Shown here piece by piece: positions 1,612-60,911 of a stretch of 64,000 nt of DNA (its first letter is position 1; the number at the start of each line of letters is the position of its first letter). Source of the stretch: a virus. The stretch is from IMG/VR virus record IMGVR_UViG_3300045971_001064, positions 11,256-75,255 of that record; one strand, 5' to 3'. The notes below the pieces were generated by a model, which did no database searches, had not been told where the DNA came from, and saw only the letters and a program-made list of their open reading frames with translations. Made by a program: the position numbers and the translations under genes.

Positions 1612-4600
1612 GTGAGCAACGGCTACTGGGTGTCCAAATGCGGCCTTCGAGTGCCGAAGGCCGACAACCCGCTGCGCAAGCAGTGGGACGCCGCCTATCT
1701 TGCGCGCGTGTCCGACTACTTCGGCGACAAGGACCGCGACCTCGTCCCCGCCCACATCCCGGTCTCGAAGCTCATCGGCGGCCATGGCGCCAGCGCCGAC
1801 AACAGCCGCGGCCAGTTCTACGTCCGCCTCCTGAAGCTCGGTGAGCGCATCCCGCCCATCGTGGTCTCGGAGATGGGTGACGGCAACTACCACGTCCTCG
1901 ACGGCAACCACCGCGTCGCCGCGGCTCAGGTCTCAGGCACCTCGCACCTGCACGCGCTCGTCATCAAGGACAAGAAGGGCGCCAAGCCGCGCTCGACCTC
2001 GCCCCACGTCTTCACCGGCACCAAGGTCAAGAAGCTGGGCGCGAAGCCGATGAAGAAGAGCGAGGGGGCCGACATCCTCGACCTCTCGAAGCACGAGCGC
2101 GAGGTCCCGCCCGAGTTGCCTCAGCGCATCATCCACGCTCTCTGGGCCATCCGCCAGCCGGGCGTGCTGACCGACGAGCTTCGCCAGCCCCAGTACCGCT
2201 CCAACCCCGACCCGTTCGCTGGGCACTGCTTCGTCGCGACCAACGCGCTCTACCACCTCATCGACGGCCCGAAGACCGGCTGGAGCATGAAGTGCATCCA
2301 CAAGGAGCACATGGAGGGGCTGGCGGACGACTCGCACTGGTTCCTCCAGCACAAGAAGACGGGCCACATCATCGACCCGACCGCGGACCAGTTCGACTCG
2401 GTGCCGCCGTACGAGAAGGCCGTGTCGAAGGGCACCAGCCAGACCGGCGAGGACGTGGGCAAGCCGACTCAGCGCGCCGAGAAGGTCATCAAGCGCGCGA
2501 GGGCTGTGATGGCTGGCGAGCCGCTGACCAAGGGCGAAGAGGAGATGGAGAAGGCCGAGTCGAGCCCCGAGTTCGAGTCGTGGTTCTCGGGCTCGAAGGC
2601 TGTCGACCACGAGGGCAAGCCGCTGAAGTTCTTCCACGGCACCTCGAAGGACAGGGACTTCCACACCTTCAAGACGGGCCAGCGTGGCGCGTGGTTCACT
2701 GACGACCCCGAGGAGGCCAGCCTCTACGCGGACCAGAACGACAGCCGCGGGGCCAAGCTCGACCGCTACACGATGCAGTACAAGGAGCACAACACCGCGG
2801 GCCGCGTCATCCCGGTGCACCTGTCCATCAAGAACCCCTACACGCCGAGCTTCGAGGAGTTCAAGGAGATGAAGCACGCCCAGAACTACGCTTGGGCGCA
2901 GCGGAAGCTCTTCGAGAAGGCGAAGCTGGCAGGGCACGACGGCGCCAACATGGGCGCTGGCATCTGGGTCGCCTTCAACCCGAACCAAATCAAGTCGGTC
3001 TTCAACACCAAGCCGACTCAGCACCTCGCCATCCACAAGGCGGAACTCGCCAAGGCCATCGCCCCCGGCACGCAGACGGGCAGCTTCAACAAGGACGTCG
3101 CGCAGGAGTGGGACTACAGCCACCTGCTGCCCCAGCACGCGCGTGACGAGGGCTACCGCATCCGCCTCATCGCCCACAAGTACAAGGGCGGCGCGGGCAA
3201 CAGCGGCCACGTGCAGGTCCTCGCTCGCCAGACCGTCGACGGCCGCACTCGGCATGTTGGTGCGACGACCGGCCACTTCGACGGCGGGACCGTGCTGGTG
3301 CGTGACGCGCTGGTGGAGGAGAAGGACCGTGGCGCCAGCCGACGCAAGGCCGGGAAGAAGCCGCTCGGCGTGGGCACGGCGCTGTACGAGGCGCTCTACG
3401 CGCACGCTCGTGCTCAGCTTGGCTGCACCGCCGCCGAGGGCGACATCCACTCGACCTCCGCCCACAACGTGCACCGCAAGCTGTCGCGGAAGCACGGGCT
3501 CACCTACGAAGGCAAGCCGAACATCAGGCGCACTGGCGGCCTCGGGTACCGCGACATGGACGAGTGGCGTGAGACTCCTGCCTCCGACCACGACGGCAAG
3601 TACGAGGAGTACGGCTACCGGCTGCCCGACGTCCTTGAGCCGAAGCAGACGAACAGCTTCGCCGAGCACAAGCTCCCCGGCTCGCTGCACGCTGAGGGCT
3701 ACCGGCTCAACATCTCCCACAGCCCCGACACGACCATCGGCACCATCCACCGCCACGGCGAGGTCCTCGGCCACATCGAGTTGACGCCCAAGGGCCACGC
3801 CTTCGAGGAGTGGACGGGCGAGAACAACCGGACCGGGCTCAGCGACGCCGTGCTGTCCGTGCTCCGCGGCCACATGGGAGGCGAGGCCGGGCACGACGAG
3901 TGGAATAACGCCTCCAAGCCCGAGCAGATGATGAAGGCTGAGCAGGTCGACCTCACCGACTTGCTCAAGGCCATCCGCCCCACGAAGCAGGTCAAGTTCG
4001 ACAAGCTGCCCGAGCCTCCCACTGGCAGGCGCCCCGACAGCACCCGCCCGCCTCTGCCCGGCTACAAGGCGCAGCCGTACGGCAGCGATAAGAACAACAC
4101 CTTCGACTACAGCCACCTCCTGCCGAAGGAGTTCCAAGGCAAGTACCGCATCTACGTCCACACCACGGACTACACTGGCGAGAAGGGCCACGAGCGTCAG
4201 TCCACGGTCACAGTTCACCGCGCGCCGCAGCCCGGGCCCACGCCCGTCGACATGGCTGCTCGCGAGCCCATCCTGACCGCCTACGGCAACCACATCAAGG
4301 TGCCGACCAACAACATCCGCACCGAGGGGCTGTACAGGCAGGCCATCCAGCCGCACATCATGCCTCTCACGGACCGTCGCGCTGCGGGCATCACCCCGTA
4401 CGCCATGATGGCCCTGCTGGCTCACGCGCGCAACAACCACGGCATCAAGATGCTCGACATCCCTGAGCACACGCCTGCGGCCTCCAACATGATTCGCCGC
4501 TACTTGGGGCTCATCGGCGCCAAGTACGAGGGGCAGCAGGTCCCGAACCCCCAGCACGGCGATGCCCAGTACGACCCCTTCGTCCGCGACCCCGAGCACA

Positions 4601-7600
4601 TGTTCACGGGCCAGCGGGTCATGCTGAAGGCCGAGGACATCGGACCGGCGGACGGCAGCCACATCACCGCCCCGCACCAGAGCTACGTCCACGGCGCCGC
4701 GGCCAAGCCCTTCGGCACCGAGTACGAGGGCGGCAAGAACGTCTGGGGACGCAACCACCCGGGCAAGAGCAACAAGGGTCGCACGCTGATGGTCCAGTTC
4801 TCCTCCGACCTGCTTCAGGGCGGGCGAAAGAAGGATGAGGCGGACCAGTACTACGACAAGCTCTACTCGAAGCGCGAGGGCTACCACCGGGGACAGGATT
4901 TCTGGGAGGTGCCGCAGTGGCAGGCTCACATGGCGCACTCGATGCCGAACGCCGACCACTACACGGTGCGCGACCCCGAGGAGGCCATCAAGTTCATGGG
5001 CGCGGCGGGCTACGACCACGTGGCCTTCTCCGCTCTCGACGTCAACAAGGACTTCGTCCGTCGCCTCGCTGAGGGCGCTCCTGACCAGCACGTCGTCGTC
5101 GGCGGCTACACGGACATGGCGCACTTCGGGGACCTGAAGAACGTCTCCGTGCACCCGAGCATCAAGAGCTTCGTCGAGTCCGAGGGCCACACCTACCAGC
5201 CCGGCTACGACTACCGGCACTTCACCGGGATGAAGACCATCCCGCGCCTGACCCTGAGCGACGGCTGCCGCCACCAGTGCACCTTCTGCTGCGTGCCCAA
5301 GCAGGTCAACGAGAAGACCCGAGAGGAGATTCTCCAGCAGGCCGACAGCTTCGCCACGCACCTGCCCAGCGACCTCATCTACCTGAACGACAAGACCTTC
5401 GGGCAAGCGAAGAACCACGCGATGCTGCCGGAAATCTACCAGCGCATCAAGGCGAAGAACCCCGGCTTCAAGGGCTTCATCATCCAGACGACCGCGGCGC
5501 AGATGAAGCGCTTCACGCCCGAGTACATGAAGCAGGCGGGCATCAAGCACGTGGAGCTTGGCGTGGAGTCGGTCAACGACCCCATCCTCAAGGCCCACAA
5601 GAAGCCCGCCACCGAGGCCATCATCGAGGACGCCGCCAACAAGGTGCGCGCCGCCGGGGCCAGCCTCATCCCGAACATCATGGTCGGCCTGCCGGGCGAG
5701 GACCGCACCACGTACGCGCGGACGCTGGGCTGGCTCCAGAAGCACCGCGACATCATCAGCCACGTGAACGCCTACAACCTCGCCCTCTACGACGACAGCG
5801 AGCTTGGGAAGAAGCTCCAAGTCATCAACGCGGCCGACCGTGACGAGAACGTGCAGCAGAAGTCGTGGCACACCGACCCGCAGGCGCACGCCGACTTCGC
5901 GAAGGCGCTCTTCGGGTTCGCCAACGGCCAGTTGGACCAGCCCATCGGCCACACGCAGTTGGTGAAGTTCGAGGACCTCGTCCTGCTGGACCTCAAGAAG
6001 AACCAGCCCCTCCCCGGCCACGAGCAGGTCGGCGAGCAGCTTGGGTCGAACCCGGGCGGCGTCTACCAGCACAAGAAGACCGGTAAGCAGTACTACGTGA
6101 AGTTCGCGCCGACCAACGACCACGCGCACAACGAGCACCTCGCCTTCCACCTGTACCAAGCGGCTGGCGTCCCGACCCCGAACGTCTCGCTGGTCGAGCA
6201 CCAGAAGGGCAAGCTCGCCACCACCTCCGAGATGCTCCCGGCCGTGGACCTTGAGACCAACGCGGACTACCACAACGCGGCCCAGCACTTCGGGGCTCAT
6301 GCGTGGCTGGCCAACTGGGACGCGCTCGTCTCGGGCAACACGGTGAACGTCGAAGGCGTGCCCCACACCATCGACGCTGGCGGCGCTCTCCAGTACCGCG
6401 CCATGGGCGGGCCCAAGGGCAACCTCTTCGGCACTCAGGTCGGCGAGTTCAGCACGATGCGCGACCTGAAGATGAACGGCGCCGCTCGCGCCTTCCAGCG
6501 CCTGTCCCCTGACGAGGTCGCTGCCTCGGTCGCTCGTGTCGGCAACGTCTCGGACCAGACCATCGACGAGTTGGTGCGCGCCTATGGCCCCGTCGAGAAG
6601 GAGAAGGCGGAGTGGCTGGCCAGCACCCTGAAGGCCCGCAAGCAGCACCTGCTCGCTCAGGCTCACGCTGAGACCGGCATCAAGCCGCTGGGGAAGGCGG
6701 AGGGCCCGCACCCGTACTTCGCCGCGGCTGACGAGGCTCCGACGAACGAGGGCATCGAGGCGGCTGAGCAGGCCTACCACGGCGGCGTGGCCAACCTCGG
6801 CGACCCGGACGCGGCCCACCACATTCAGGGCATGGGCGGGTACTTCGACTACCGCTCGCACTTGGAGAACGCCGCGCACCAGCACCTCGGTGCCGAGTTC
6901 CCGGTGTGGCGCAACATGTCGGTCGAGCAGTACCGCGGCTGGCGCAACGGTGAGAACGTCGGGCCGGTGAGCGTCACCCTGAACCCCGACGTGGCGCGCA
7001 ACTGGAGCAAGCTCGCAGCGGTCAAGGGCGAGCGCTCGGTGGTGCAGTTGAAGGCTACGCCCGCCTCCATCCTGATGCGCGGCCGTCCCGAGGAGCACGA
7101 GTTGGTCATCGACGGCGACCAAGTCGAGCTTCCCATGGCCAAGGCTCAGGCCTTCATGAAGAGCCCCGCCTTCCGACACATCGCCTCAGGCAAGGTCGTG
7201 GCGACGCCCGTCTTCCACGACACCGCGCACTTGGGTCGCGTGGCGAAGCTGAAGTTCGACAAGGAGAACGACGAGTACCCCGAGGCATACACGCACTGGG
7301 AGGCGGGCTTCCTCGACCACGCTGGCAACTTCTTCAACCGCGAGGACGCGCTCAGGGCCGTCAGCACTTCCAAGACCCCCTCCTCGACCATCAGCGCCGC
7401 GATGCAGGCCGACGGCGGCTTGGAGTCGACGCAGTACGCCGCGGGCCAGAGCAAGGGCATCTTCAAGGCTGAGGTCGACCGCCACGACCCTGTCTCCTGC
7501 GTCGTCATGGTGCAGGACGCGCTGGGCCGCACTCTCTGGGGCAAGCGCAAGGACGGCAAGTACACGATGCCCGCCGGTCACGCCAACCAGAACGAGTTGC

Positions 7601-9627
7601 CTCCCGACTGCGCCAAGCGCGAGTTGATGGAGGAGGCGGGCCTGAAGGCTGAGGCGCTCTGGCTCATCGGCTCCGCCAACGGCAACGAGGGCCCTGTCCA
7701 CGTCTACCACGCCGTCAGCCACGGCAAGGCGTGCACCGACCTCGACCCGGACCGCGAGATGGCTTCGTGGGAGTGGGTCGACTGCCTTCGCGGCCCGCCT
7801 CCGCACATCACCGCCAACCTCGCCCACAACCCCAACGCCGTCTACGCGCTCATGGGCTGGGAGCAGCCGCTGGCGAAGGGCGCCATGCAGCGCGTCGCCC
7901 CGATGAAGCACCCGCCGAACAAGAACCCGTCGTACCCTGACCCGAGGATGCTGCACAACTGGCAGGAGGGCGCGGAAGACGTCCCTTCCGACGGCCGCAA
8001 CAGCATCAAGCCCATGGCTGGCCCAGTGTTGGCGCGCGGCCTTCACAGGCTGCACGGTCACACTCAGGTCCGACGCAGCGCTGAGACCGGCGAGCGCGAG
8101 TTCCTCCTGCACCGCGGCGTGGGCGCTCTGGAGTACAGCCTCGGTGACCGAGGGCCCGGCAGCTTCGCTCCCAACGAACTGTCTTCGTGGACGCCTCACC
8201 GCGATGTCGCTGAGCGGTTCTCTCGTAACGTAGTGACGGCTTGGATTCCCGAGGGGCACATCCATGCTCTGGGCTCCATGAACCCGTGGAGCAATGACTC
8301 GGACCTGAAGAGGGAGAGCGAGGTCATCGTCCGCCCGGGGCAGTTCGAGCGGCACCAGCCTGCGATGGCCAAGTCCGAGGACGACGAGCAGGAAGCTCCT
8401 CCTCGTCCGCCGCCCGACCGCAGCTACGAGCGCCGCTTCCCTCTGCCTGAGTACTCGCACTTCGGGCCGAAGAACATCCACAAGCAGTGGAAGAACACCC
8501 AGTACCTCGACGAGCCCAGCAGGGAGAACCCGGGCGAGCGCAAGAGCATCTGGGACCTCGACCAGCGCGACATCGACCCAATCCGCGAGATGGACTTCAA
8601 GAGGAACGCTCCGCACCTGAGCACCATCTCGAAGGCCGTCCACAAGATGGTGGGCGGGACCAAGGCGTACTCCTCCGACCGGATTCACGACTTCATCGTC
8701 GACTCCGACCTGCCTTCGCAGAGTGAGCACCCCGACTTCCCCGGCACGTTCACTTCTCAGGCCTTCCACAGCGACACCGGCAACCACATCGCGAAGGAGG
8801 ACGCCAAGCGGCTCGCGTACCTCTTCGGCGACGACGAGGCGGTGAGCCACAAGGACTCCGTCCCCTCCTTCAAGATGGCTCTGCACGAGATGATGCACGG
8901 CGCGTCCGGCCAGTACAAGTACGACACGCACGACCGCCGCTTCATCGAGGAGGCGACGACCGAGGTGCTGGCTCAGCACTACATGCCGCAGGTCCTCAAG
9001 CACTCGCACGACATCGACCTCAGCTACTACGGCGGCGGCCATGAGAACCCTCTGGTCCGCATCGACTCGAAGACCGGCGAGACCTACCTCGACCGGCCCG
9101 TGTCCTACCACGGCTGGGTGGACAAGTTCGCGAAGGTCGTGGCTCACATCGAAGGACTCGACGAGCCCGCCAAGCTCGACGAGACCGGGCACTACAGCGG
9201 CGACGAGCACGACGAGAAGGAGCGCAAGCTCAGCCACATGGTCGCGTGGTACGCCCTCAAGATGAAGCAGATGGGGCATCACGAGTCCTCGCGCTCGACT
9301 TGGTTGCAGCAGATGTGGATTCACAGGAAGCTGGGCGTCAGCCCGCCCGCGGTCGCCGTCTCGCATCCGTACTACGGCATCCGCAATCGTCTCCACGACC
9401 TCGCCTTCGACCCCATCGGGAAGCACTACGTCTTCAATGCGGAGACCAACAAGCACGAGGAGGTCGACCCGCCGCGCGGCATCTTCCACCACTCGCGCGA
9501 GGTCACCCGGGACACCCTAAAGGCCATCACCGAAGAGCTTGCCAAGACGCACCGGCTGAGCTATGTTAGGGTGAGCGACCCCGGCTACGAGGCCGCCAAC
9601 CCGGAGAAGGACCCTTATGCCCCGTAA
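1612..9627 (+). CDS. Giant polyvalent polyprotein (2671 aa): ParB-like, papain-like, ART, 2-3 GNAT-like, B12/radical SAM, HipA/PI3-4K-like kinase, ART, unknown, Nudix, ART, zincin
   Basis: Motifs in order: VLDGNHR; GHC..SHW..IDPTADQF; FHGT..GAWFT..VHL.IKNP..AFNPNQIKS; GVGTALY; CxxxCxxC with VELGVES and GLPGED; YYVK..NEH..NWD..IDAG; WRN..SVT..EEHELV; Nudix box GHANQNE...RELMEEAGL; HRG..SSW..ESEVIV; HEMMH..EE. GTG start with GAGG upstream. Confidence 0.8.
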   Translation: MSNGYWVSKCGLRVPKADNPLRKQWDAAYLARVSDYFGDKDRDLVPAHIPVSKLIGGHGASADNSRGQFYVRLLKLGERIPPIVVSEMGDGNYHVLDGNHRVAAAQVSGTSHLHALVIKDKKGAKPRSTSPHVFTGTKVKKLGAKPMKKSEGADILDLSKHEREVPPELPQRIIHALWAIRQPGVLTDELRQPQYRSNPDPFAGHCFVATNALYHLIDGPKTGWSMKCIHKEHMEGLADDSHWFLQHKKTGHIIDPTADQFDSVPPYEKAVSKGTSQTGEDVGKPTQRAEKVIKRARAVMAGEPLTKGEEEMEKAESSPEFESWFSGSKAVDHEGKPLKFFHGTSKDRDFHTFKTGQRGAWFTDDPEEASLYADQNDSRGAKLDRYTMQYKEHNTAGRVIPVHLSIKNPYTPSFEEFKEMKHAQNYAWAQRKLFEKAKLAGHDGANMGAGIWVAFNPNQIKSVFNTKPTQHLAIHKAELAKAIAPGTQTGSFNKDVAQEWDYSHLLPQHARDEGYRIRLIAHKYKGGAGNSGHVQVLARQTVDGRTRHVGATTGHFDGGTVLVRDALVEEKDRGASRRKAGKKPLGVGTALYEALYAHARAQLGCTAAEGDIHSTSAHNVHRKLSRKHGLTYEGKPNIRRTGGLGYRDMDEWRETPASDHDGKYEEYGYRLPDVLEPKQTNSFAEHKLPGSLHAEGYRLNISHSPDTTIGTIHRHGEVLGHIELTPKGHAFEEWTGENNRTGLSDAVLSVLRGHMGGEAGHDEWNNASKPEQMMKAEQVDLTDLLKAIRPTKQVKFDKLPEPPTGRRPDSTRPPLPGYKAQPYGSDKNNTFDYSHLLPKEFQGKYRIYVHTTDYTGEKGHERQSTVTVHRAPQPGPTPVDMAAREPILTAYGNHIKVPTNNIRTEGLYRQAIQPHIMPLTDRRAAGITPYAMMALLAHARNNHGIKMLDIPEHTPAASNMIRRYLGLIGAKYEGQQVPNPQHGDAQYDPFVRDPEHMFTGQRVMLKAEDIGPADGSHITAPHQSYVHGAAAKPFGTEYEGGKNVWGRNHPGKSNKGRTLMVQFSSDLLQGGRKKDEADQYYDKLYSKREGYHRGQDFWEVPQWQAHMAHSMPNADHYTVRDPEEAIKFMGAAGYDHVAFSALDVNKDFVRRLAEGAPDQHVVVGGYTDMAHFGDLKNVSVHPSIKSFVESEGHTYQPGYDYRHFTGMKTIPRLTLSDGCRHQCTFCCVPKQVNEKTREEILQQADSFATHLPSDLIYLNDKTFGQAKNHAMLPEIYQRIKAKNPGFKGFIIQTTAAQMKRFTPEYMKQAGIKHVELGVESVNDPILKAHKKPATEAIIEDAANKVRAAGASLIPNIMVGLPGEDRTTYARTLGWLQKHRDIISHVNAYNLALYDDSELGKKLQVINAADRDENVQQKSWHTDPQAHADFAKALFGFANGQLDQPIGHTQLVKFEDLVLLDLKKNQPLPGHEQVGEQLGSNPGGVYQHKKTGKQYYVKFAPTNDHAHNEHLAFHLYQAAGVPTPNVSLVEHQKGKLATTSEMLPAVDLETNADYHNAAQHFGAHAWLANWDALVSGNTVNVEGVPHTIDAGGALQYRAMGGPKGNLFGTQVGEFSTMRDLKMNGAARAFQRLSPDEVAASVARVGNVSDQTIDELVRAYGPVEKEKAEWLASTLKARKQHLLAQAHAETGIKPLGKAEGPHPYFAAADEAPTNEGIEAAEQAYHGGVANLGDPDAAHHIQGMGGYFDYRSHLENAAHQHLGAEFPVWRNMSVEQYRGWRNGENVGPVSVTLNPDVARNWSKLAAVKGERSVVQLKATPASILMRGRPEEHELVIDGDQVELPMAKAQAFMKSPAFRHIASGKVVATPVFHDTAHLGRVAKLKFDKENDEYPEAYTHWEAGFLDHAGNFFNREDALRAVSTSKTPSSTISAAMQADGGLESTQYAAGQSKGIFKAEVDRHDPVSCVVMVQDALGRTLWGKRKDGKYTMPAGHANQNELPPDCAKRELMEEAGLKAEALWLIGSANGNEGPVHVYHAVSHGKACTDLDPDREMASWEWVDCLRGPPPHITANLAHNPNAVYALMGWEQPLAKGAMQRVAPMKHPPNKNPSYPDPRMLHNWQEGAEDVPSDGRNSIKPMAGPVLARGLHRLHGHTQVRRSAETGEREFLLHRGVGALEYSLGDRGPGSFAPNELSSWTPHRDVAERFSRNVVTAWIPEGHIHALGSMNPWSNDSDLKRESEVIVRPGQFERHQPAMAKSEDDEQEAPPRPPPDRSYERRFPLPEYSHFGPKNIHKQWKNTQYLDEPSRENPGERKSIWDLDQRDIDPIREMDFKRNAPHLSTISKAVHKMVGGTKAYSSDRIHDFIVDSDLPSQSEHPDFPGTFTSQAFHSDTGNHIAKEDAKRLAYLFGDDEAVSHKDSVPSFKMALHEMMHGASGQYKYDTHDRRFIEEATTEVLAQHYMPQVLKHSHDIDLSYYGGGHENPLVRIDSKTGETYLDRPVSYHGWVDKFAKVVAHIEGLDEPAKLDETGHYSGDEHDEKERKLSHMVAWYALKMKQMGHHESSRSTWLQQMWIHRKLGVSPPAVAVSHPYYGIRNRLHDLAFDPIGKHYVFNAETNKHEEVDPPRGIFHHSREVTRDTLKAITEELAKTHRLSYVRVSDPGYEAANPEKDPYAP

Positions 9628-9847
9628 GGACTACCGCACGCTCATCGCCGCCGAAGCGGTCGTCATGGAGCCGCGCTCGACGGCCGAGCAGGTCAAGGCT
9701 GCAATCGCCTCGGTCGACGCACTCGGGGACCGCGAGCAGTCGGTCGCCATCCGCCAGACCCTCACGCACGAGGCCCACCACCGCGCAGACGCCCCGGGGA
9801 ACGACGCAGAGGGCTCGGACGAGGCCTCGGAGGGGTCCGGCCACTAG
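9617..9847 (+). CDS. Hypothetical protein
   Basis: Overlaps the upstream stop; plausible codon usage. Confidence 0.45.
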   Translation: MPRKDYRTLIAAEAVVMEPRSTAEQVKAAIASVDALGDREQSVAIRQTLTHEAHHRADAPGNDAEGSDEASEGSGH

Positions 9848-9893
9848 AATCGCTCCACGGGGCACGCAGGAAGTCTGGCGCGGCTTGGCGAGG

Positions 9894-9904
9894 CGTGCTA
9901 GGAT
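9894..9904 (+). promoter_or_regulatory. Extended -10 promoter CGTGC-TAGGAT
   Basis: Same CGTGCTA core as eight - strand promoters. Confidence 0.45.
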
Positions 9905-10151
9905 GAAGGGAACAGGCAGTGAACCAGCGGAAGGAGACCGACCCTGCGAGGGAGTCCGTCAAAGCCCTCTACCACCAAACCTGCTTAAACCCACGTTCTT
10001 TCAGACCAATCCTTGAATCGCAGCACGGTCCACTGACTCTGGCCGATACAAAGAGTCGAGGAATGGCGGCCACTTACGACCGCCCCCGGGCCACCGGGTG
10101 CTGTGAACAGGACGGGGGCGTGCGCCGCCCGCGGTAGTCATCGAGGAAGTC

Positions 10152-10421
10152 ATGGTCAAGCTGGTCATCAAGCTGCTGGACTCAGGCAAGAGCGAGACGT
10201 TCATCGGGTCCGAGAAGGACGCCGAGCAGCGCCTGCGCGTCCTGTTCCCCCGCGAGACCGAGCACACCGGCCGCCTCATGTCGTGCATCTCGGCCATCAA
10301 CGCCGAGGGCTTCGGCGAGGTCGACGTGGCTCCGTACATGCCGCCTCCCGAGCGCAACCTGCTGCCCAAGGACTACGACGCCGACGTGCACCGCGAAGAC
10401 CCGTGGCCGCGCTCCGAGTAG
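10152..10421 (+). CDS. Hypothetical protein
   Basis: SD GAGGA; typical codon usage. Confidence 0.65.
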   Translation: MVKLVIKLLDSGKSETFIGSEKDAEQRLRVLFPRETEHTGRLMSCISAINAEGFGEVDVAPYMPPPERNLLPKDYDADVHREDPWPRSE

Positions 10422-10448
10422 CAGCAATCTGTAGAGCGTGCCCGCCGG

Positions 10449-10456
10449 TAATCTAG
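10449..10456 (+). promoter_or_regulatory. Putative late promoter TAATCTAG
   Basis: Exact motif; ATG 10463 follows within 8 nt of the hexamer. Confidence 0.6.
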
Positions 10457-10462
10457 GTGGGG

Positions 10463-13400
10463 ATGGCCCCTCCCAAGAGCAACGTCAACCCCGCGGGCTC
10501 TGGCCCCTTCTTCCACGCGAAGGGGCACGAGGTGTCGAAGGGCCACAAGCTGGCCAACGGCGGCAACTCGTGGGACTGCCAGTCGTGCGGTCAGGACTAC
10601 GACCCCGACGAAGTGTTCGCCGAGCACGAACTTCCTGAGGACGACGGGCTCGGCGGCGAGACCGTGAAGGTCACCAAGCCCTCGGTCACTCCGTCGCTCT
10701 CACCTATGCAGGCTGCTCAGAAGGTGAGCGCGCTGCTCGATGGCACGCCCGACGTCAAGCCGTCCGGCGTCGTGCAGATGGAGGCGCCTGCTGGCTTGGC
10801 CAACATGGGCGAGCGGCTGGTGGGGCAGAACAAGACGGCGAAGCAGAACCGCCGCTGCTGGCAAGGGCCCGGCAGCGAAGCCCTGCACGCCCAGTTCAAC
10901 CACCGCATCCACACGCCCCTCGCCAACGTCTCGCTGGAGGGTGAGCACTTCGACCACCATCACGGCGCGTGGCTCAAGATTCAGGGCAACTCGCTCTACG
11001 TCGCCAACAAGCTCATCGGCGACTCGCGCGTCAGCCATGACACGCCCCTCAGTCACATCGACCTGTACAGCGCCTACAAGAGCACCCCGCACGCTCCGGC
11101 GTCGACGTTCCTGAAGTACCTCGTGCACCGCATCAACCACGTCGAGGACTACGAGGACCCGACCAAGGGGCACAAGCTCGACGTCGCCTTCAAGGAGTTG
11201 GTCCAGCGCGGCGGCGCGGCCGAGAAGAACGGCCACATCTCCATCCAAGACCTGCACGACTGGACCGACAGGCACGCCACCACCGTGGTGCCGCAGTTGC
11301 TGGCCGAGAAGCAGCGCATGCAGATGGACGTGGCGCGCGGCATCGGGCTCAACGTCCGCAGCATCAACGGCGAGCCCCACGTGGCGCTCACCCGCGGGCT
11401 CAACTCGGACATCATGCAGGACGAGCACTCGCTCTCCTCGCATGCTGACACGGTCGACACCGGCTTCGGCTCCGACATGCACCACTCGTGGGTGCCGCTG
11501 AAGGACCTCTGGTTCCTGTACGACCTCGACCGCACCGCGCGCTCCCACATCCACATGGGGCCCGAGGACGAGGCGCTCATCTCGAACACGGGCCCGCGCT
11601 ACGAGGCCTCGGCGCACGACGTCAAGAAGAACCGCATCAAGCGCTGGCCGAGCCAGCACCCCTACGTCTACGACGACATGTCGGACGAGAGCCTCGCCAA
11701 GCTGCTGAGCGGCGCGTCGTCCAACCCTGACGCCGACAACGAACTGAAGTACGCCATCAAGGACCACAAGAACGCTGGCCCGGCCGTCTGGGCGTTCGAG
11801 CGCAGGCGGTTCGAGGATGCCGGGATGACGCCTGAACTGGGTCGCCCGCCCATCGGCGCCTTCGGCTACAAGTGGTACCCTCGCGAAGAGGTGATGAAGG
11901 CCGCTGCGCTCTCGAAGGTCAGCGTCGACGGCCCCGCGTGGTTCCGCAACCAGAACCTCAACGCACAGGACTTGGAGACGTTGTCGGCGAAGCTCTTCGA
12001 CGGCGAGCCGAAGAAGAACAGCTACTCGGGCCTCGTCGATGAGGGGGCTCAGCAACTGCTCACGCACCCCGCGATGAACTCGCACGTGCTGGAGCGCATC
12101 TGGAGGGCGCAGCACGGCTCGCCGTGGGCTCCGACGCTGCTGGAGTCGCCTCTGGCCACCCACCAGATGCGCGAGGACGCCATCGAGCAGGCGAAGTTCA
12201 TGTCGGGAGCCGGGCTCCTCGCGCCCCTGAAGCTCATGCGGGCAGTGACGAGCAACCCTCACCACACCGAAGAGCAGGCGCAGAAGGTCTTCGACTGGGC
12301 CGTGCAGAACGGGATGTTCAGGGACAACGAGGACCTGCACAACGCCATCGCTCGCGCGAAGCTCCCGGCCGAGACGGTGCTGAAGCTGTACGACCGCCGC
12401 GACGAGTTGGGTGAAGAGCAGGCCGTCAGGAACTCCTCCCGCGGCTTCGAGCCCGGCGGGCACCTCACGCCGGATGAGCGGCGAGAGTACAATACGCTCG
12501 GGGCCATCAAGAACGACTTCATGCAGGTGCACCCCGACGCCAACGTCGTTGCCCGGGTCGCGGCGTCCAAGCCCGGCCGAGTCTCGCCGCTCACGCTCCT
12601 CCAGCGCCTGAGTTGCAACGGCGGGACCTTGGAGCCCGTGTTGCAGGCTGCCCTCATCACCGAGTGCGAGCACCTCTACGGCCACGGCACCCCTCACCTC
12701 GGCTCGACTCGCCAGCCGGTGGTGGAGTTCTTGGAGAAGCTGGCCGGGGCGAAGGGGCTCTCGCAGGAGAGCATCAACTACCTCGCGCACTACAAGGACA
12801 ACTTGGTGCGTGAGGTCCTCGGCCTCAACAAGAGCATCGCGCCCGAGCAGCTTCGCGCCGCCTTCCCCAAGGGCGTCCAGTTCCCCGAGCGCTCGAACAT
12901 CCACTACGAGACCGGCACCCACACCGGCACCATCGCCGAGGAGCTTGGGCAGGCCTACTGGCGCCGCAAGCAGTACGCTGAGAAGAAGGCCAAGCTCCAC
13001 TTCATCAAGCCCCTGCCCGCGGACCTCGCCAAGTCGAGCGAGGAGGACCTGTGGCGCGCGGCTGCACGGCACTGGCTGGCCGACCAGACGACCAAGGGGT
13101 TCTACGCCGTCATCCACAAGGACGTCGCCGAGGGCGCTCTCCGGGACAAGGCCATCGAGCCCCAGTTCACGGACGAGTTGCTGGACGGCGAGGCCGTGTT
13201 CGGTCGCCCTGCCACGCCCGAGAACCTCATCAAGCTCCAGAAGCTGGCTGGCCCGGACGAGGTGGTGGCCTACTTCGAGACACCTGTCGCTCCTCGTGAG
13301 CACACCGACGGCAGCCTGTACTGGACCGAGCGCGTGCCCTGCGAGACCATCCAGTTGGCGGACGTGGGCGACGAGCCGCTCGCCAAGATGCACACGCCCC

Positions 13401-16400
13401 TCACCTTCCCGAAGCTGGGCGTCGAGGACGATAGGCGCGAGACGAAGGTCGTCACCACTCCTCGTGAGCGCCAGACCTTCAACCGCGCCGCGGGCAACAT
13501 GTTTGCCCGTGAGAGCTACGTCACCGACGACAGGAGCCAAGGCGACATCTACGAGAGGTTCCGCGAGAACCCGGCGATGAAGCAGGCCACCATCGACCGC
13601 GACACCGCGACCATCGCCAAGGACAGGCACGTCGGCGCCCAGTACACAGGCAACGCTGGCGTCGGCCACCCGGGCCACGGCGCCCCGCGCGACGAGCGCG
13701 ACCTCATCCCCGACGCGGGCACCGGGGCGTCTGCCACGTCGGCCGCCTTCGCGCCTTCGTCTGCTCCTCGTCGGAAGCTCAACCCGGCTGAGGCTGCCGC
13801 GTGGAGCGACCCGACCTACCTGCCGAGCACGCTGCATCACGAAGACCTCCACCGCATCTTCGCGCGGGTCCAGCACAAGCACGGCGAGCGCGGCCGGGAG
13901 ATGTTGGCCCGCAACCTCGTCCACGTGCTGCCTCAGGACCTCCAGTCGGCGGTGATGAAGCACCTGTTCTACGCGCAGCCGAAGAACATGAACGAGCCCT
14001 TCCCCGAGGAAGAGGCCATCACCGAGTTGACGTCGTACCTGAACAGCCCTCAGATGCGCGACGGCTTCCACAAGAAGCAGCAGCACTCGTCCGAGCAGCA
14101 GAAGGCCTTCCACGACAAGATGAAGCGCGCCTACCGGCTCCTGCTGGCGGTCTCGCCCACGGTCGACGAGGGCTGGCTGCACCACGAGAAGCCGTGGATG
14201 AAGCGTGGCGTGGCCATGCGCAAGTTCACCGAGCCCCAGTCCGGCACCGGGCTGTCGGCCGCCGAGGCCCACGAGGTCTTCCGCGGCTCGAACAAGCTGA
14301 CGAAGTCGCGCCCAGACCTGCTCGACGCCAACTCCTTCGCGTTCGCCTTCGAGACCGACCCGACCTTGATGGACAGCATCGACGCGCGCCACTGGGAGTT
14401 GGAGTTGCGCAAGATGGGGAGCTTGAACGAGTACCCTACGGCCGCCTCGAACTTCATCAAGGAGTTCCAGAAGCGGACCGTGCACAACGGGTTCGACGAG
14501 CGCCTCGGCCGCTACCACAACACCACGGGCGACAACACCGAGGGCACTCTCATCGTCATGTCTCCGCGCATCAAGGCATGGAGCGACAAGCCGACCGTGG
14601 GCCTCGACTGGATTCAGGCGCTGAAGCAGGGTAACGGCGACGGGCACCGGTCCATGAAGTTCATCACCGACCTCGCCGACAAGCATGGCGTCAGCGTCGA
14701 GTTGCACGTGGGCAGTGACGGCGGCGCCAAGACGTCGCCCAAGTCGATGCTCCACAAGTTCTACAAGAAGCACGGCTTCGTGAAGCGCGGCAAGTTCGAG
14801 AAGGACATCCTCGTCAGGCACGCGACCACGCACGCTGTCACCGAGCCGGGCGAGACGTTGAAGCTGGGCTCGACGATGCGGACCATCAAGAAGGCTGAGG
14901 AGGAGTTCGACCTCGCCAAGATGGCCGTGGTCCACGACGACCCCGAGAGCCCGATGACGGTCTACCGCGTCGAGGACCCCGAGACCAACCTCGGCCCCTA
15001 CACCGACCCCGACGAACCGCCCTCGAAGGTGGAGCCTCCGCGCGGCCAGACCCTCCGCGACCGGACCACCGGCTACCGCCGCGCCAAGACGCACCCGAAC
15101 CCCGAGCCCGAGACCGACTTCGATGCGCGCGACTACCGGGACTTCGAGGCCCAGTACAAGAAGGTGCGCTTCGGCTTCATGTCCCGGCAGGACGCCTACA
15201 ACTGGTTCGGCCGCGACCTCTCCGGCGCTGTCCGGGAGCAGGAGCACCCGCCTTCCTACAAGGTGGTGAAGGTGCTGGCGCGCAAGGTGTGGAAGTCGCG
15301 CACGGGCAAGCAGGTCTTCTTCGTGCCGCACAAGCCAGTCAAGAAGAGCGAGCCCGAGGGCGACGTGCTGGAGAAGATGTCGGTCTTCCACGACGACCCG
15401 AAGAATCCGCGCAAGGTCTACCGCGTCGAGGATTATCATGGCCGCGGCCCGTACCAGAACAAGTACGACGTGATGCCGGACAAGGAGCGCGACCCCCGGT
15501 GGGCCGCGAAGCGCCCGAACCCCGGTCGCGACTTCCCGGCCAAGGAGTGGTCGCAGAACCCCGAGGGCGGCGTCTTCGGCTTCGCTCGCCCAGAGGATGC
15601 TGTCGAGTGGTTTGGTCCGCATCGCCTCGCTCGCCTTAAGGCCACAGGCTTCGAGCTTCGTGAAGTGCTGGCTCACAAGGCCTACCTCTCGAACTCCGGT
15701 AGGCAGGTGGTGTTCCAGCGTTCTCCTCCTCCGCCATCTGGCGCGCGACCAGCCAACCCGGTAGTCCCTGTACCGAAGGTCAAGGGGCCGTGGGTTCCAC
15801 ATCCTGAGGCCGCTGAGCACGCGGTGACGGCTCTGCGTAACGCCCACGACCAGCACCTCGACACGCTCTCGGCGGCCTTCGGCAAGCTGCCCAAGCAGAA
15901 GCAGGTCAAGGTCGAAGGGTTGGAGGACTCATTCCAGCAGGCTCTCTCGGAGAAGGATGCCGAGTCGCTGAAGGACCACCCCTTCGTCCAGTGGGCTCGC
16001 ACCGTGGTTCCTGAGTTCGGTCAGTCCATGCAGAAGAGCGAGGACTTCGTGTTGCCCACCGAGAGCATCCTGAAGCCCGGCGAGGAGTCGGCTGCCAAGC
16101 TCATGCTCGGCCACCGCAAGGACCACGAGACCGCTCTCAAGGCCGCTCGCTTCCTCACCGGCCGCAAGGAGCCCGTCGACGAGAACCTGTTCACGCTGGC
16201 CCTCAACGTCTTCGACGGCGACTTCGAGCGGGCCGCTCTGTTCGCCGTGGGGATGACGGACTCCGAGGCCAACCTGAAGGCCTTGCGCGCCGCCCTCAAG
16301 CTGGGTGAGTTCTCGCAGGAGACCACCGAGTTGTCGAAGAACGAGCCGGGCACGCCTCACATCGAGAGCGTGAACCCGGGCGCTCCTGACGCGACGCCCA

Positions 16401-17242
16401 CCGCCGACGAGGTGAAGCGCGGCGTGACGGCCGGTCTGGTGCAGCCGCTCAAGCTCGGCGGGAAGCACTCGAAGGGCTCCATGGCTGTGCGCGACCCGAA
16501 GACGGGCAACACTTGGTTGCTCAAGCCCGGCGCCGGGAAGGCTTCGCCCGCGGCTGGCGTGCGTGATGGAGCTTCGTCGCAGTCTGCGCGCGAAGCCGCC
16601 TTCTGGCACTGCATGGACCGAACGGGTCTCGGCAACTACGGCCCCAAGTGCGACCTGCTCGAAGTGAATGGCGGACAGGTTGCGGCGATGAAGCTGCTGG
16701 GCCCGTCTTGGAAAAGCGCCGACGAACAGAACCGCAAGGTCGACGGTTGGGCACGTGAGATTCTCCAGCCCTACCTCGACCGCGGCGACGTCCACCGTAT
16801 CGCGGCTTTGTTCTGGGTCTTGGGCGAAAGTGACGCCCATGGTCAGAACGTCCTCGTGCACGCAGAGTCAATCGCTCTCATCGACCACGGCTCCTCGTTT
16901 GCTGGTCCGAACTTCAACCCCGGCCGCGACAGCAAGTCGTTTACCCCCTACATCCTGCGCGTGTTCGCTCCGGCGGGCTACACCAAGAAGAAGCCCGAGG
17001 ACCGCATCTCCGGTCTGCCCGTGTTGATGCCTGCTGGCGACATCGCGCTGAGGAAGTGGGTGCACAGCATCGACCCCGGGCTCATCTCCGAGACCATGGG
17101 CTCGCACGGCATCGGGCAGGTGGAGCAGGAGGCTGTGCTGGAACGACTCAACGACCTCCAGCACCACGAGGGCCCGAGCCTGAGCCGCTACGTCAACGAA
17201 CTCTGGGCGGGTGTGGTTCTTCCTCCGCACTTGAGGAGCTAG
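10463..17242 (+). CDS. Second giant polyvalent polyprotein (~2260 aa): ART-like, helical repeats, unknown, zincin, GNAT-like, two tandem VYRVE domains, PI3/4K-like kinase
   Basis: Motifs LTRG..LSS..EDEALI; HEDLH..EEEAITE; GNGDG..ADKHGV..HKFYKKHGF; duplicated VYRVE..GPY..FGF..WF; WLLKP..REAA..DAHGQN..IDHG. Confidence 0.75.
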   Translation: MAPPKSNVNPAGSGPFFHAKGHEVSKGHKLANGGNSWDCQSCGQDYDPDEVFAEHELPEDDGLGGETVKVTKPSVTPSLSPMQAAQKVSALLDGTPDVKPSGVVQMEAPAGLANMGERLVGQNKTAKQNRRCWQGPGSEALHAQFNHRIHTPLANVSLEGEHFDHHHGAWLKIQGNSLYVANKLIGDSRVSHDTPLSHIDLYSAYKSTPHAPASTFLKYLVHRINHVEDYEDPTKGHKLDVAFKELVQRGGAAEKNGHISIQDLHDWTDRHATTVVPQLLAEKQRMQMDVARGIGLNVRSINGEPHVALTRGLNSDIMQDEHSLSSHADTVDTGFGSDMHHSWVPLKDLWFLYDLDRTARSHIHMGPEDEALISNTGPRYEASAHDVKKNRIKRWPSQHPYVYDDMSDESLAKLLSGASSNPDADNELKYAIKDHKNAGPAVWAFERRRFEDAGMTPELGRPPIGAFGYKWYPREEVMKAAALSKVSVDGPAWFRNQNLNAQDLETLSAKLFDGEPKKNSYSGLVDEGAQQLLTHPAMNSHVLERIWRAQHGSPWAPTLLESPLATHQMREDAIEQAKFMSGAGLLAPLKLMRAVTSNPHHTEEQAQKVFDWAVQNGMFRDNEDLHNAIARAKLPAETVLKLYDRRDELGEEQAVRNSSRGFEPGGHLTPDERREYNTLGAIKNDFMQVHPDANVVARVAASKPGRVSPLTLLQRLSCNGGTLEPVLQAALITECEHLYGHGTPHLGSTRQPVVEFLEKLAGAKGLSQESINYLAHYKDNLVREVLGLNKSIAPEQLRAAFPKGVQFPERSNIHYETGTHTGTIAEELGQAYWRRKQYAEKKAKLHFIKPLPADLAKSSEEDLWRAAARHWLADQTTKGFYAVIHKDVAEGALRDKAIEPQFTDELLDGEAVFGRPATPENLIKLQKLAGPDEVVAYFETPVAPREHTDGSLYWTERVPCETIQLADVGDEPLAKMHTPLTFPKLGVEDDRRETKVVTTPRERQTFNRAAGNMFARESYVTDDRSQGDIYERFRENPAMKQATIDRDTATIAKDRHVGAQYTGNAGVGHPGHGAPRDERDLIPDAGTGASATSAAFAPSSAPRRKLNPAEAAAWSDPTYLPSTLHHEDLHRIFARVQHKHGERGREMLARNLVHVLPQDLQSAVMKHLFYAQPKNMNEPFPEEEAITELTSYLNSPQMRDGFHKKQQHSSEQQKAFHDKMKRAYRLLLAVSPTVDEGWLHHEKPWMKRGVAMRKFTEPQSGTGLSAAEAHEVFRGSNKLTKSRPDLLDANSFAFAFETDPTLMDSIDARHWELELRKMGSLNEYPTAASNFIKEFQKRTVHNGFDERLGRYHNTTGDNTEGTLIVMSPRIKAWSDKPTVGLDWIQALKQGNGDGHRSMKFITDLADKHGVSVELHVGSDGGAKTSPKSMLHKFYKKHGFVKRGKFEKDILVRHATTHAVTEPGETLKLGSTMRTIKKAEEEFDLAKMAVVHDDPESPMTVYRVEDPETNLGPYTDPDEPPSKVEPPRGQTLRDRTTGYRRAKTHPNPEPETDFDARDYRDFEAQYKKVRFGFMSRQDAYNWFGRDLSGAVREQEHPPSYKVVKVLARKVWKSRTGKQVFFVPHKPVKKSEPEGDVLEKMSVFHDDPKNPRKVYRVEDYHGRGPYQNKYDVMPDKERDPRWAAKRPNPGRDFPAKEWSQNPEGGVFGFARPEDAVEWFGPHRLARLKATGFELREVLAHKAYLSNSGRQVVFQRSPPPPSGARPANPVVPVPKVKGPWVPHPEAAEHAVTALRNAHDQHLDTLSAAFGKLPKQKQVKVEGLEDSFQQALSEKDAESLKDHPFVQWARTVVPEFGQSMQKSEDFVLPTESILKPGEESAAKLMLGHRKDHETALKAARFLTGRKEPVDENLFTLALNVFDGDFERAALFAVGMTDSEANLKALRAALKLGEFSQETTELSKNEPGTPHIESVNPGAPDATPTADEVKRGVTAGLVQPLKLGGKHSKGSMAVRDPKTGNTWLLKPGAGKASPAAGVRDGASSQSAREAAFWHCMDRTGLGNYGPKCDLLEVNGGQVAAMKLLGPSWKSADEQNRKVDGWAREILQPYLDRGDVHRIAALFWVLGESDAHGQNVLVHAESIALIDHGSSFAGPNFNPGRDSKSFTPYILRVFAPAGYTKKKPEDRISGLPVLMPAGDIALRKWVHSIDPGLISETMGSHGIGQVEQEAVLERLNDLQHHEGPSLSRYVNELWAGVVLPPHLRS

Positions 17243-17245
17243 ACG

Positions 17246-17253
17246 TAATCTAG
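17246..17253 (+). promoter_or_regulatory. Putative late promoter TAATCTAG (leaderless)
   Basis: ATG 17258 lies 6 nt after the TAATCT hexamer. Confidence 0.55.
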
Positions 17254-17257
17254 AGGC

Positions 17258-17740
17258 ATGACCCTCACGTGCCCAAGGTGCAAGGCTGCTAAGCCGTCCG
17301 ACCAGTTCAATCGCGACGTGAGTCGCCCAAGCGGAAGGCAGGTGTCCTGCCGAGCGTGTGAGAAGGTCTACCGCGACACGATGATGGACAGGACCAAGAG
17401 GTCGGCCGACAACAAGGCTTGGCGCTTGGCCAATCGCGAGTACGTTCGTGCCGAGAACCGCGCGTGGCACTACCGCGCCAACTACGGCATGACCATCGCC
17501 GACTACGACGCGCTGTTGCTGAAGCAGGGCGGTGGATGTGCGGTCTGCAAGACTAAGAAGACCGGCACGCGCAACCACTTCTTCTGCGTCGACCACCGCC
17601 ACGTCGATGGCTACGACGCGCTGGTGGCCGAGGAGAAGCGGCGTCACGTCCGCGGCCTGCTCTGTGTGACCTGCAACTTGGTAGCCGGGAAGCTGGAGGA
17701 GTTCCCCGGCGCCTTCGAGGCCTACGTGGCGGGGCTCTAG
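17258..17740 (+). CDS. Endonuclease VII-family HNH homing endonuclease
   Basis: YGMTIADYDALL.KQGGGCAVC...VDH.H...VRGLLC..CN, plus an N-terminal CxxC/CxxC. Confidence 0.85.
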   Translation: MTLTCPRCKAAKPSDQFNRDVSRPSGRQVSCRACEKVYRDTMMDRTKRSADNKAWRLANREYVRAENRAWHYRANYGMTIADYDALLLKQGGGCAVCKTKKTGTRNHFFCVDHRHVDGYDALVAEEKRRHVRGLLCVTCNLVAGKLEEFPGAFEAYVAGL

Positions 17741-60904: not shown

Positions 60905-60911
60905 TAATCTA
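60905..60911 (+). promoter_or_regulatory. Putative late promoter TAATCTA
   Basis: Heads the chaperone / tape measure island. Confidence 0.6.

Follow-up and report, generated by a model that had tools for sequence, protein, structure and literature searches.

The 64,000-nucleotide (nt) stretch of DNA analysed here (the window) comes from a contig that, judged from its sequence, is a phage, an uncultured relative of Myxococcus phage Mx1. On the plus strand, at 10463..17242, it carries a gene for a giant protein, P0001 (database copy P0003), which we read as a phage polyvalent protein of about ten modules that is packaged into the prohead, cut at its linkers by the prohead protease and ejected into the host. 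We give this reading a probability of roughly 0.6. Proteins of this kind, for which packaging and injection are predicted, often unite ADP-ribosyltransferase (ART), metallopeptidase, kinase and GNAT domains (PMC5512222).

We envision that P0001 would be made late, alongside the head proteins, and would enter the prohead. There, an SPO1-type prohead serine protease would cut it after the lysine of linkers of the form L-x-K↓[S/A/M/N] (the arrow marks the proposed cut), the same site at which this protease would trim 13 residues off the capsid protein and dice a scaffold-like protein. The freed pieces, namely an ART-solenoid fusion, a 118-amino-acid (aa) domain, a zincin-like domain, a GNAT, two MotB.2-like domains (the VYRVE modules below) and a kinase, would remain in the capsid, be ejected with the DNA and modify host proteins or nucleic acids ahead of any phage gene expression. 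What the sequences show directly is the arrangement of the modules, their invariant residues of catalytic type, linkers that are conserved and at which cassettes are exchanged, and a matching site in head proteins; cleavage, packaging, ejection, enzymatic activity and targets are what we infer.

Linkers at the module borders

The module borders of P0001 carry L-x-K↓[S/A/M/N] linkers. Those at K859, K977 and K1961 are present in 9/9 aligned proteins with an invariant lysine; the first, L-A-K859↓S-S-E-E (13025..13045, plus strand, as are all features given below), reads LAK-SE in all nine. The strict motif [LIMVF]xK[ASGN]E occurs four times in P0001 against 0.67 expected, a count reached by 7 of 2000 shuffles, and nine times against 0.66 expected in the neighbouring polyprotein P0002, a 2671-aa open reading frame (ORF) at 1612-9627 with Pfam matches to ART-PolyVal, Radical_SAM and NUDIX.

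This linker code is common to both polyproteins and little else is, just as the original prediction had stated: BLASTP and hhalign of P0001 against P0002 return only linker-like stretches, and hhalign found no relation of the ART profile to the three ART-like modules of P0002, nor of the kinase and zincin profiles to P0002. The view of P0001 as a second polyprotein with a different effector set holds as well, in that its module families differ from those of P0002, while the types (ART, GNAT, kinase, HExxH) overlap.

The linkers also travel with the modules into other proteins. Some 50 unrelated proteins have ...K-K-E-E-(P/L)-L-x-K-M before their VYRVE modules, which makes two sites about nine residues apart, and the same pattern stands ahead of both copies in P0001. 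Zincin-like modules of unrelated proteins are preceded by L-x-K and then M, H or F. Standalone members of the VYRVE family start near the methionine that follows the linker lysine.

The same site in head proteins

The N-termini of the capsid proteins carry this site too: ...LQALAK↓AMEAGG in this phage, ...LRK↓AMEAG in Mx1 and ...LVK↓AMEAG in L008. Just upstream of the capsid gene, in the position of a scaffold protein (L002:2823-3869), lies a gene for a 348-aa protein with a Pro/Ala/Gly-rich low-complexity middle. It has four linker sites (MNKSE, MRKSE, LTKAE and LSKAE), as does its Mx1 counterpart. Furthermore, residues 17-170 of the 1239-aa "putative prohead protease" of Mx1 (L005:13002-16721, OR576727.2) resemble gp3.2, the head maturation protease of SPO1, and directly after this protease domain comes a 41-aa copy of the capsid protein N-terminus that includes FAK↓AMEAG. 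The occurrence of the L-x-K↓ site in capsid and scaffold-like proteins, which sets P0001 apart from the polyvalent proteins of PMC5512222, points to the prohead protease rather than to an embedded metallopeptidase.

Cargo that bears the short cleavage motif of the capsid protein is known from other phages. In SPN3US, phiKZ and T4, the prohead protease recognises short motifs in head and ejection proteins and cuts there, the cargo being Alt and the IPs in T4 and the E proteins in phiKZ and SPN3US; this cargo is processed within the prohead and leaves it together with the DNA on ejection (PMC10052503), both of which we propose for P0001. In those phages, however, cutting occurs after Glu and in most cases takes off a single N-terminal propeptide, whereas in P0001 the P1 residue would be Lys and the sites are found throughout the chain, so that cutting would release about eight to ten modules.

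Two side observations concern these head genes. The major capsid protein (phrog_752; L002:3901-5337, upstream of the window) has a probable 13-residue propeptide that ends in LAK, before AMEAGG. The Mx1 prohead protease continues for about 1000 further residues and ends in a kinase-like DRNDGN...HIDN motif; it is itself polyprotein-like. Its protease domain has no match among PDB sequences.

Modules that recombine at the linkers

A word-indexed search returned nine relatives of 1522-2359 aa besides P0003. They have two blocks in common with P0001 (residues ~100-1320 and 1860-2261), and the stretch between these varies. The GNAT module is kept by P0004 and P0005 alone, neither of which has a VYRVE module; P0006 carries another GNAT in its place; P0008 combines a single VYRVE copy with a C-terminal DUF3626 that follows the kinase (PF12294; P0008:2020-2359). 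Other core-sharing relatives have almost nothing between the two blocks. The variable cassette (1320-1860) sits exactly between linkers, and it is at linkers that cassettes are swapped. In fact, the KSE/KAE site at the cassette junction is present in most of the nine aligned proteins, and even the cassette-less junction is a linker: in P0004, ...VIKKSE leads directly into the C-terminal block. P0012, found by the same search, has only the ART module in common with P0001.

Single modules spread much further. When residues 855-1865 were used as query in an exhaustive search, 329 proteins matched at E <= 1e-3, and when the best 150 of these 329 were sorted by the part that they matched, 16 belonged to the 118-aa domain, 95 to the zincin-like domain, 20 to the small module 1256-1340, 8 to the GNAT and 61 to the VYRVE modules. 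The profile of the N-terminal ART domain found 58 further proteins, whose other domains include PI3_PI4_kinase, NUDIX, ART-PolyVal, GNAT, LRV and HEAT. Because the module families, of which this one ORF holds at least seven distinct ones, recur independently in many architectures, P0001 is an array of shuffled modules and has no single structural fold. Segment-wise structure prediction, which the original prediction had proposed as a check, agrees for the two modules that were modelled alone: AF2 folds each of them compactly and independently (pLDDT 85 for VYRVE and 91 for the ART).

P0001 thus shares with the polyvalent proteins described by Iyer, Burroughs, Anand, de Souza and Aravind in 2017 (PMC5512222) the many unrelated effector-type domains per chain, the typical set of ART, HExxH peptidase-like, GNAT and kinase domains, the location among late/virion genes and the fast domain turnover. 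It differs in that none of its modules reaches the Pfam cutoff for PolyVal families, and in that its kinase is PI3/PI4-kinase/HipA-like, as opposed to the truncated Ser/Thr kinase clade of that study.

Alternative readings

Several points weigh against packaging and cutting by the prohead protease. The tripeptide [LIMVF]-x-K is common, with 44 occurrences in P0001, so that we rely largely on conservation and position to define a site. Genes for the protease, portal and terminase are missing from the contig, which is ~60% complete; owing to this incompleteness, the Mx1 prohead protease has no homolog there apart from the copy of the capsid N-terminus. Neither a capsid-targeting sequence nor a MuF domain was found. 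We found no proteomic or N-terminal data on either this phage or Mx1, nor does the genome announcement (PMC10720576) contain any, and a literature search for Mx1 virion proteins and the SPO1-type cleavage site gave nothing usable. P0001 itself passes no Pfam cutoff, all matches of its ART fold to solved ARTs are weak (Z <= 4.4), and the embedded HExxH domain is another candidate protease.

This last point leads to a rival reading, which we consider unlikely: the same polyvalent cargo would be cut, in cis or in trans, by the HExxH zincin-like module that it carries, and the prohead protease would be uninvolved. Cutting by an embedded HExxH module is what Iyer et al. proposed for polyvalent proteins (PMC5512222). 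In line with it, both polyproteins contain the motif (HEDLH at 1128 in P0001 and HEMMH at 2425 in P0002), and the zincin-like family is very common in such polyproteins, as its 95 of the best 150 matches show. Against it, the capsid N-terminus, the scaffold-like protein and the Mx1 protease, which carry the same site, are classic prohead-protease substrates. Moreover, polyprotein 1 of L007, polyprotein 1 of L008 and the Mx1 kinase protein have linkers without an HExxH, so a purely cis-acting zincin cannot explain them and cutting would have to be in trans. On these grounds we favour the prohead protease.

A second rival, in our judgement an improbable one, holds that the giant multi-enzyme protein is never cut. 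It would be packaged whole, like the N4 virion RNA polymerase (N4 vRNAP), or would stay unpackaged and act late in the infected cell, and L-x-K would be a conserved flexible linker or domain cap. N4 vRNAP and ArdC/TraC1 are indeed transferred uncut (PMC5512222), the linker residues could belong to the modules, and the cleavage of P0001 is here a proposal drawn from sequence. Against this rival stand the recurrence of the site in capsid, scaffold-like and protease proteins, the paired sites about nine residues apart ahead of VYRVE modules, the starts of standalone family members close to the position that follows the lysine, and the place of the gene in the head/tail gene block.

Finally, P0001 is large and lies among structural genes, and yet we reject as very unlikely that it serves as one structural protein of the virion (of the tail or baseplate, for instance, or as a tape measure), the outcome that the original prediction had named as the one that would speak against it: what we find is a mosaic of independent modules with invariant residues of catalytic, enzyme type, with cassettes gained and lost between close relatives and with no structural-protein family match in Pfam or PHROGs.

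A possible cargo code

What is distinctive here, compared with known cargo proteins, is that a Lys-ended site punctuates the whole chain, that cassettes are exchanged at these sites and that several of the module families have no curated profile in the Pfam copy searched. More tentatively, and at less than even odds, we propose that the L-x-K↓ linker may be a general plug-and-play cargo code in phages with SPO1/Mx1-type prohead proteases: modules flanked by it would recombine, load and be freed by the protease that matures the capsid. Such modules would include MotB.2/PF26820 (perhaps a minimal NAD-utilising enzyme of the ART superfamily), a new R-S-ExE ART family and a new HExxH family.

Should our main reading hold for this phage group, two giant proteins would be carried into the capsid and some twenty enzymes released from them by the ordinary capsid-maturation protease. 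Through lysine-ended linkers of the kind seen in the capsid protein, cargo proteins and their cut sites would become predictable from sequence for many uncultured phages, and exchange at linkers would explain the fast turnover of effector sets between relatives. MotB.2/PF26820, the R-S-ExE ART (at least 67 members), the HExxH family (at least 95) and the 118-aa domain would then be candidate host-takeover or anti-defence enzymes.

N-terminal motif, ART and helical region

The original prediction had read P0001, from its N-terminus, as a CxxC, an ART-like domain, a long helical repeat region, a separate domain between LAKSSEE and LAKM, a zincin, a GNAT-like domain, two VYRVE domains and a kinase. 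This order stands, with a qualification for the helical repeats, and three small modules can be added to it, among them 1776-1860 and 1861-1961. Curated families gave little guidance: Pfam searches with whole P0001 and with ten segments returned nothing above cutoff (the Pfam copy searched does not contain PF26820, whose match was precomputed on P0003), and profile searches of the ART, zincin-like, kinase, VYRVE and 118-aa modules against PDB sequences gave nothing significant. Megablast and tblastn of P0001 against phage records found the Mx1 kinase only, the VYRVE module alone had no match in these records, and a related-locus search among viral contigs returned no relative. Profiles A5 (VYRVE), A6 (ART) and A9 (118-aa) showed no relation to each other by hhalign.

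CxxC occurs once in P0001 (C41-C44), in an optional His/Cys zinc-knuckle-like motif (aa 17-52; 10505..10612) of the form H/H/H...CxxC...YDPDEV. Alignment with P0008 defines this motif, which is common to P0001 and P0008 only and is absent from P0004-P0007; a family search gave a NinF match at chance level only.

The ART domain (aa 190-400; 11024..11656) is defined by alignment A6, an AF2 model and the structural comparison VIA. R313, S328 and E372 are invariant among 67 homologs, and E370 is conserved in at least 90% of them. The model (pLDDT 91.4, pTM 0.89) has a helical N-subdomain followed by a beta core, with the Arg on strand 122-131, the Ser on strand 142-146 and the ExE at the start of strand 188-192. 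Most rows of the two VIA runs cover the helical part only, and the matches that cover the whole model are R-S-E ARTs only: C3stau2, SpvB, a Listeria ART toxin, CPILE-a, C2-I, ExoS and ART2.2 (Z 4.1-4.4, root-mean-square deviation 4.1-5.0, 122-130 residues). With C3-like and binary-toxin-type ARTs such as C3stau2, SpvB, C2-I, ExoS and ART2.2, the P0001 domain thus has in common the Arg of the first core strand, the Ser of the following strand and the ExE that opens a later one, as well as the helical N-subdomain ahead of the beta core; it differs in lacking sequence similarity to them and in the low Z. Foldseek of the model against the PDB gave nothing at E <= 0.001 (the best hits were CNFy domains 4-5, at E 0.09), and the module has no sequence or profile match to the PDB or to the ART modules of P0002. 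On our reading, aa 190-400 would be an R-S-ExE ART, whose motif is well supported and whose fold evidence is weak but consistent.

In P0012, P0169, P0173 and P0174 the ART of this family is joined to an N-terminal segment of about 100 aa that looks, by eye, like the second module of P0002 (GHC[YF]VA...DPTA.QF), which suggests that the two polyprotein lineages may exchange modules.

The region that follows (aa 405-856; 11669..13024), defined by the same-position regions of relatives, is probably an LRV/HEAT-type solenoid. Among 20 such regions, four match LRV_2 (best E 2.2e-11), four HEAT, three HEAT_2 and two LRV, and an Atlas feature search gave weak LRV/HEAT leads. The claimed long helical repeat region gains support from these relatives; that the repeat can be demonstrated within P0001 itself we reject, since BLAST detects no internal repeat there. 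The P0001 region has no Pfam match.

From the 118-aa domain to the GNAT

Between LAKSSEE and LAKM there is indeed a separate domain of 118 aa (aa 860-977; 13034..13387), which ends in linker 2 (L-A-K977↓M). It is conserved in 16 homologs with an invariant W, T, G, F and W (alignment A9), and has no Pfam or PDB sequence match.

The zincin-like domain (aa 978-1255; 13388..14221), so called from its HExxH + EE motif, begins with an N-terminal FPKLGxxDDRRET segment. The predicted HEDLH lies exactly at 13838: among 61 aligned homologs (A7), H1128, E1129, E1185 and E1186 are invariant and H1132 is conserved in at least 90%, a pattern that agrees with the zincin metallopeptidase signature of HExxH and a third zinc ligand further on. 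Neither the profile nor the members matched Pfam or PDB sequences, and the Atlas gave a weak lead to LPD23 only.

Then comes a small conserved module (aa 1256-1340; 14222..14476), whose 20 homologs stand at various positions in other polyproteins. It has a possible extra site, L-T-K1283↓S, which takes the form L-[ST/C/L/R]-[K/R]-[SAN] in 8/9 aligned proteins. Part of this module falls within the span first given for the GNAT-like domain (~14300-14880). The GNAT acetyltransferase module itself (aa 1341-1479; 14477..14893) ends in I-K-K1479↓A-E-E-E. The P0001 module has no PF00583 match; in its homolog P0088 (local phmmer E 3.9e-17), the aligned stretch scores 23.0 bits, above the cutoff of 20.7 for that family. 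We take Q1391-G-N-G-D-G to be the acetyl-CoA motif Q/R-x-x-G-x-G/A.

The VYRVE modules

Two VYRVE domains had been proposed and both are real, with 33% identity to each other. Copy 1 (aa 1489-1630; 14921..15346; R1504, Q1619) lies between L-A-K1488↓M and V-K-K1630↓S-E. Copy 2 (aa 1641-1775; 15377..15781; R1656, S1745, Q1750) follows L-E-K1640↓M and matches PF26820 and phrog_1106 (E 2.4e-21 for the latter). On sequence and model evidence, the VYRVE domain is Pfam PF26820 (Phage_T4_Y00F; T4 member MotB.2, NP_049628), because three lines agree: the precomputed match on P0003, the ESM Atlas PF26820 cluster found with the AF2 model of copy 2 (pLDDT 84.8; TM 0.60/0.66) and the match of the A5 profile to the uncharacterised T4 gene motB.2 (E 6.7e-7). 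The P0001 modules are thus members of this family by Pfam, profile and structure. They differ from its usual form, a standalone phage protein of 115-200 aa, in being duplicated inside a polyprotein. BFVD holds about 30 standalone uncharacterised phage proteins with the VYRVE fold; a word-indexed search found no standalone relatives of copy 1, and an exhaustive search later found many. The modules have no match in the Pfam copy searched, from which PF26820 is missing, or in PDB sequences.

As to function, we have a lead. Foldseek of the VYRVE model against the PDB gave nothing at E <= 0.001. Comparison with 48,161 PDB representatives returned just 17 chains at Z >= 2, and 14 of these, by our reading of their entry titles, belong to the ART superfamily (Z 2.2-3.0): RES toxins, ParT, MbcT, Tne2, TreX, TreTu, PARP13 and KptA, together with pertussis toxin, LT, Scabin, PltA and AvrPphF. 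The highest Z of all, 3.6, belongs to an uncharacterised protein, and a second comparison gave the same picture. These models suggest that the VYRVE domain could be related to the ART superfamily. No paper on MotB.2 function was found, and the two family annotations of PF26820 name no function.

C-terminal modules and kinase

The module at aa 1776-1860 (15782..16036) ends in M-Q-K1860↓S-E; it has one homolog, P0018, and no family match. The next one (aa 1861-1961; 16037..16339), probably helical, ends in L-S-K1961↓N-E, is conserved in all nine core-sharing relatives and always stands directly ahead of the kinase.

The C-terminal kinase of the original prediction is a PI3/PI4-kinase-like (HipA-like) domain (aa 1962-2261; 16340..17239). 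In an alignment of ten sequences, the nine relatives and Mx1 (A3), PF00454 is matched by eight (best E 1.4e-8) and HipA_C by seven; P0001 itself scores 17.8 bits against HipA_C (PF07804), below the cutoff. Invariant in the ten are K2023, which is the ATP-binding lysine, D2126, H2128 and N2131 of the catalytic D-x-H-x-x-N loop, and D2143, the metal-binding aspartate of I-D-x-G; in P0001, Ala replaces the Arg of the DRH triplet.

In Mx1, the place between capsid protein and tail sheath is taken by the pair WNM70333 ('NUDIX hydrolase', 1479 aa) and WNM70334 ('kinase', 619 aa; OR576727.2). WNM70334 is 33% identical to the helical-plus-kinase part of P0001: the tblastn match includes the stretch that corresponds to module 1861-1961, with LKK↓GE at the border between the two, and the Mx1 kinase scores 34.4 bits against the PF00454 cutoff of 27.1. 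It differs in being a quarter of the size of P0001 and in lacking the ART, solenoid, 118-aa, zincin-like and VYRVE modules.

The gene and its surroundings

The source contig has 98,738 bp, 66% GC and a CheckV completeness of ~60%. The capsid, sheath and tube proteins and several further late ones share 30-55% identity with their Mx1 counterparts, in conserved order, and the P0001 gene lies between those for the capsid protein and the tail sheath, a position syntenic with Mx1. Two other phage contigs also have polyprotein 1, a ~90-aa gene and polyprotein 2 in this order. In the window, an 89-aa gene at 10152-10421 separates the two polyproteins, and L007 and L008 likewise have a gene of 89-92 aa there. 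Past the P0001 stop, after 16 nt, begins an endonuclease VII-like gene (phrog_2633; 17258-17740), and L007 is arranged alike.

P0001 is encoded by a single uninterrupted ORF that runs to 17242 from a GTG at 10457 (2261 aa) or an ATG at 10463 (2259 aa), with a predicted mass of ~251 kDa. The GC content at codon positions 1/2/3 is 0.65/0.43/0.90, and the last value matches the third-position bias of the genes of this genome, so this is an intact, real gene; its full extent is supported by the ORF, its composition and the database copy. The ATG is the likelier start, because a GGTGGGG stretch precedes it and P0003 begins there.

An Rfam search of 9500-10500 gave no match. Seven nt before this ATG, at 10449..10455, stands a TAATCTA motif, a candidate late-promoter -10-like element. 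The window holds nine copies against 0.22 expected, exclusively on the plus strand (104, 10449, 17246, 28945, 38572, 43016, 45874, 55007 and 60905); a G directly follows seven of the nine, and an ATG lies 5-34 nt downstream of eight of the nine in the printed flanks, none being printed past the copy at 60905. The copy at 17246 falls in the gap between the P0001 stop and the endonuclease VII-like gene. Three of the TAATCTA-to-ATG gaps are so short that the mRNA would be nearly leaderless.

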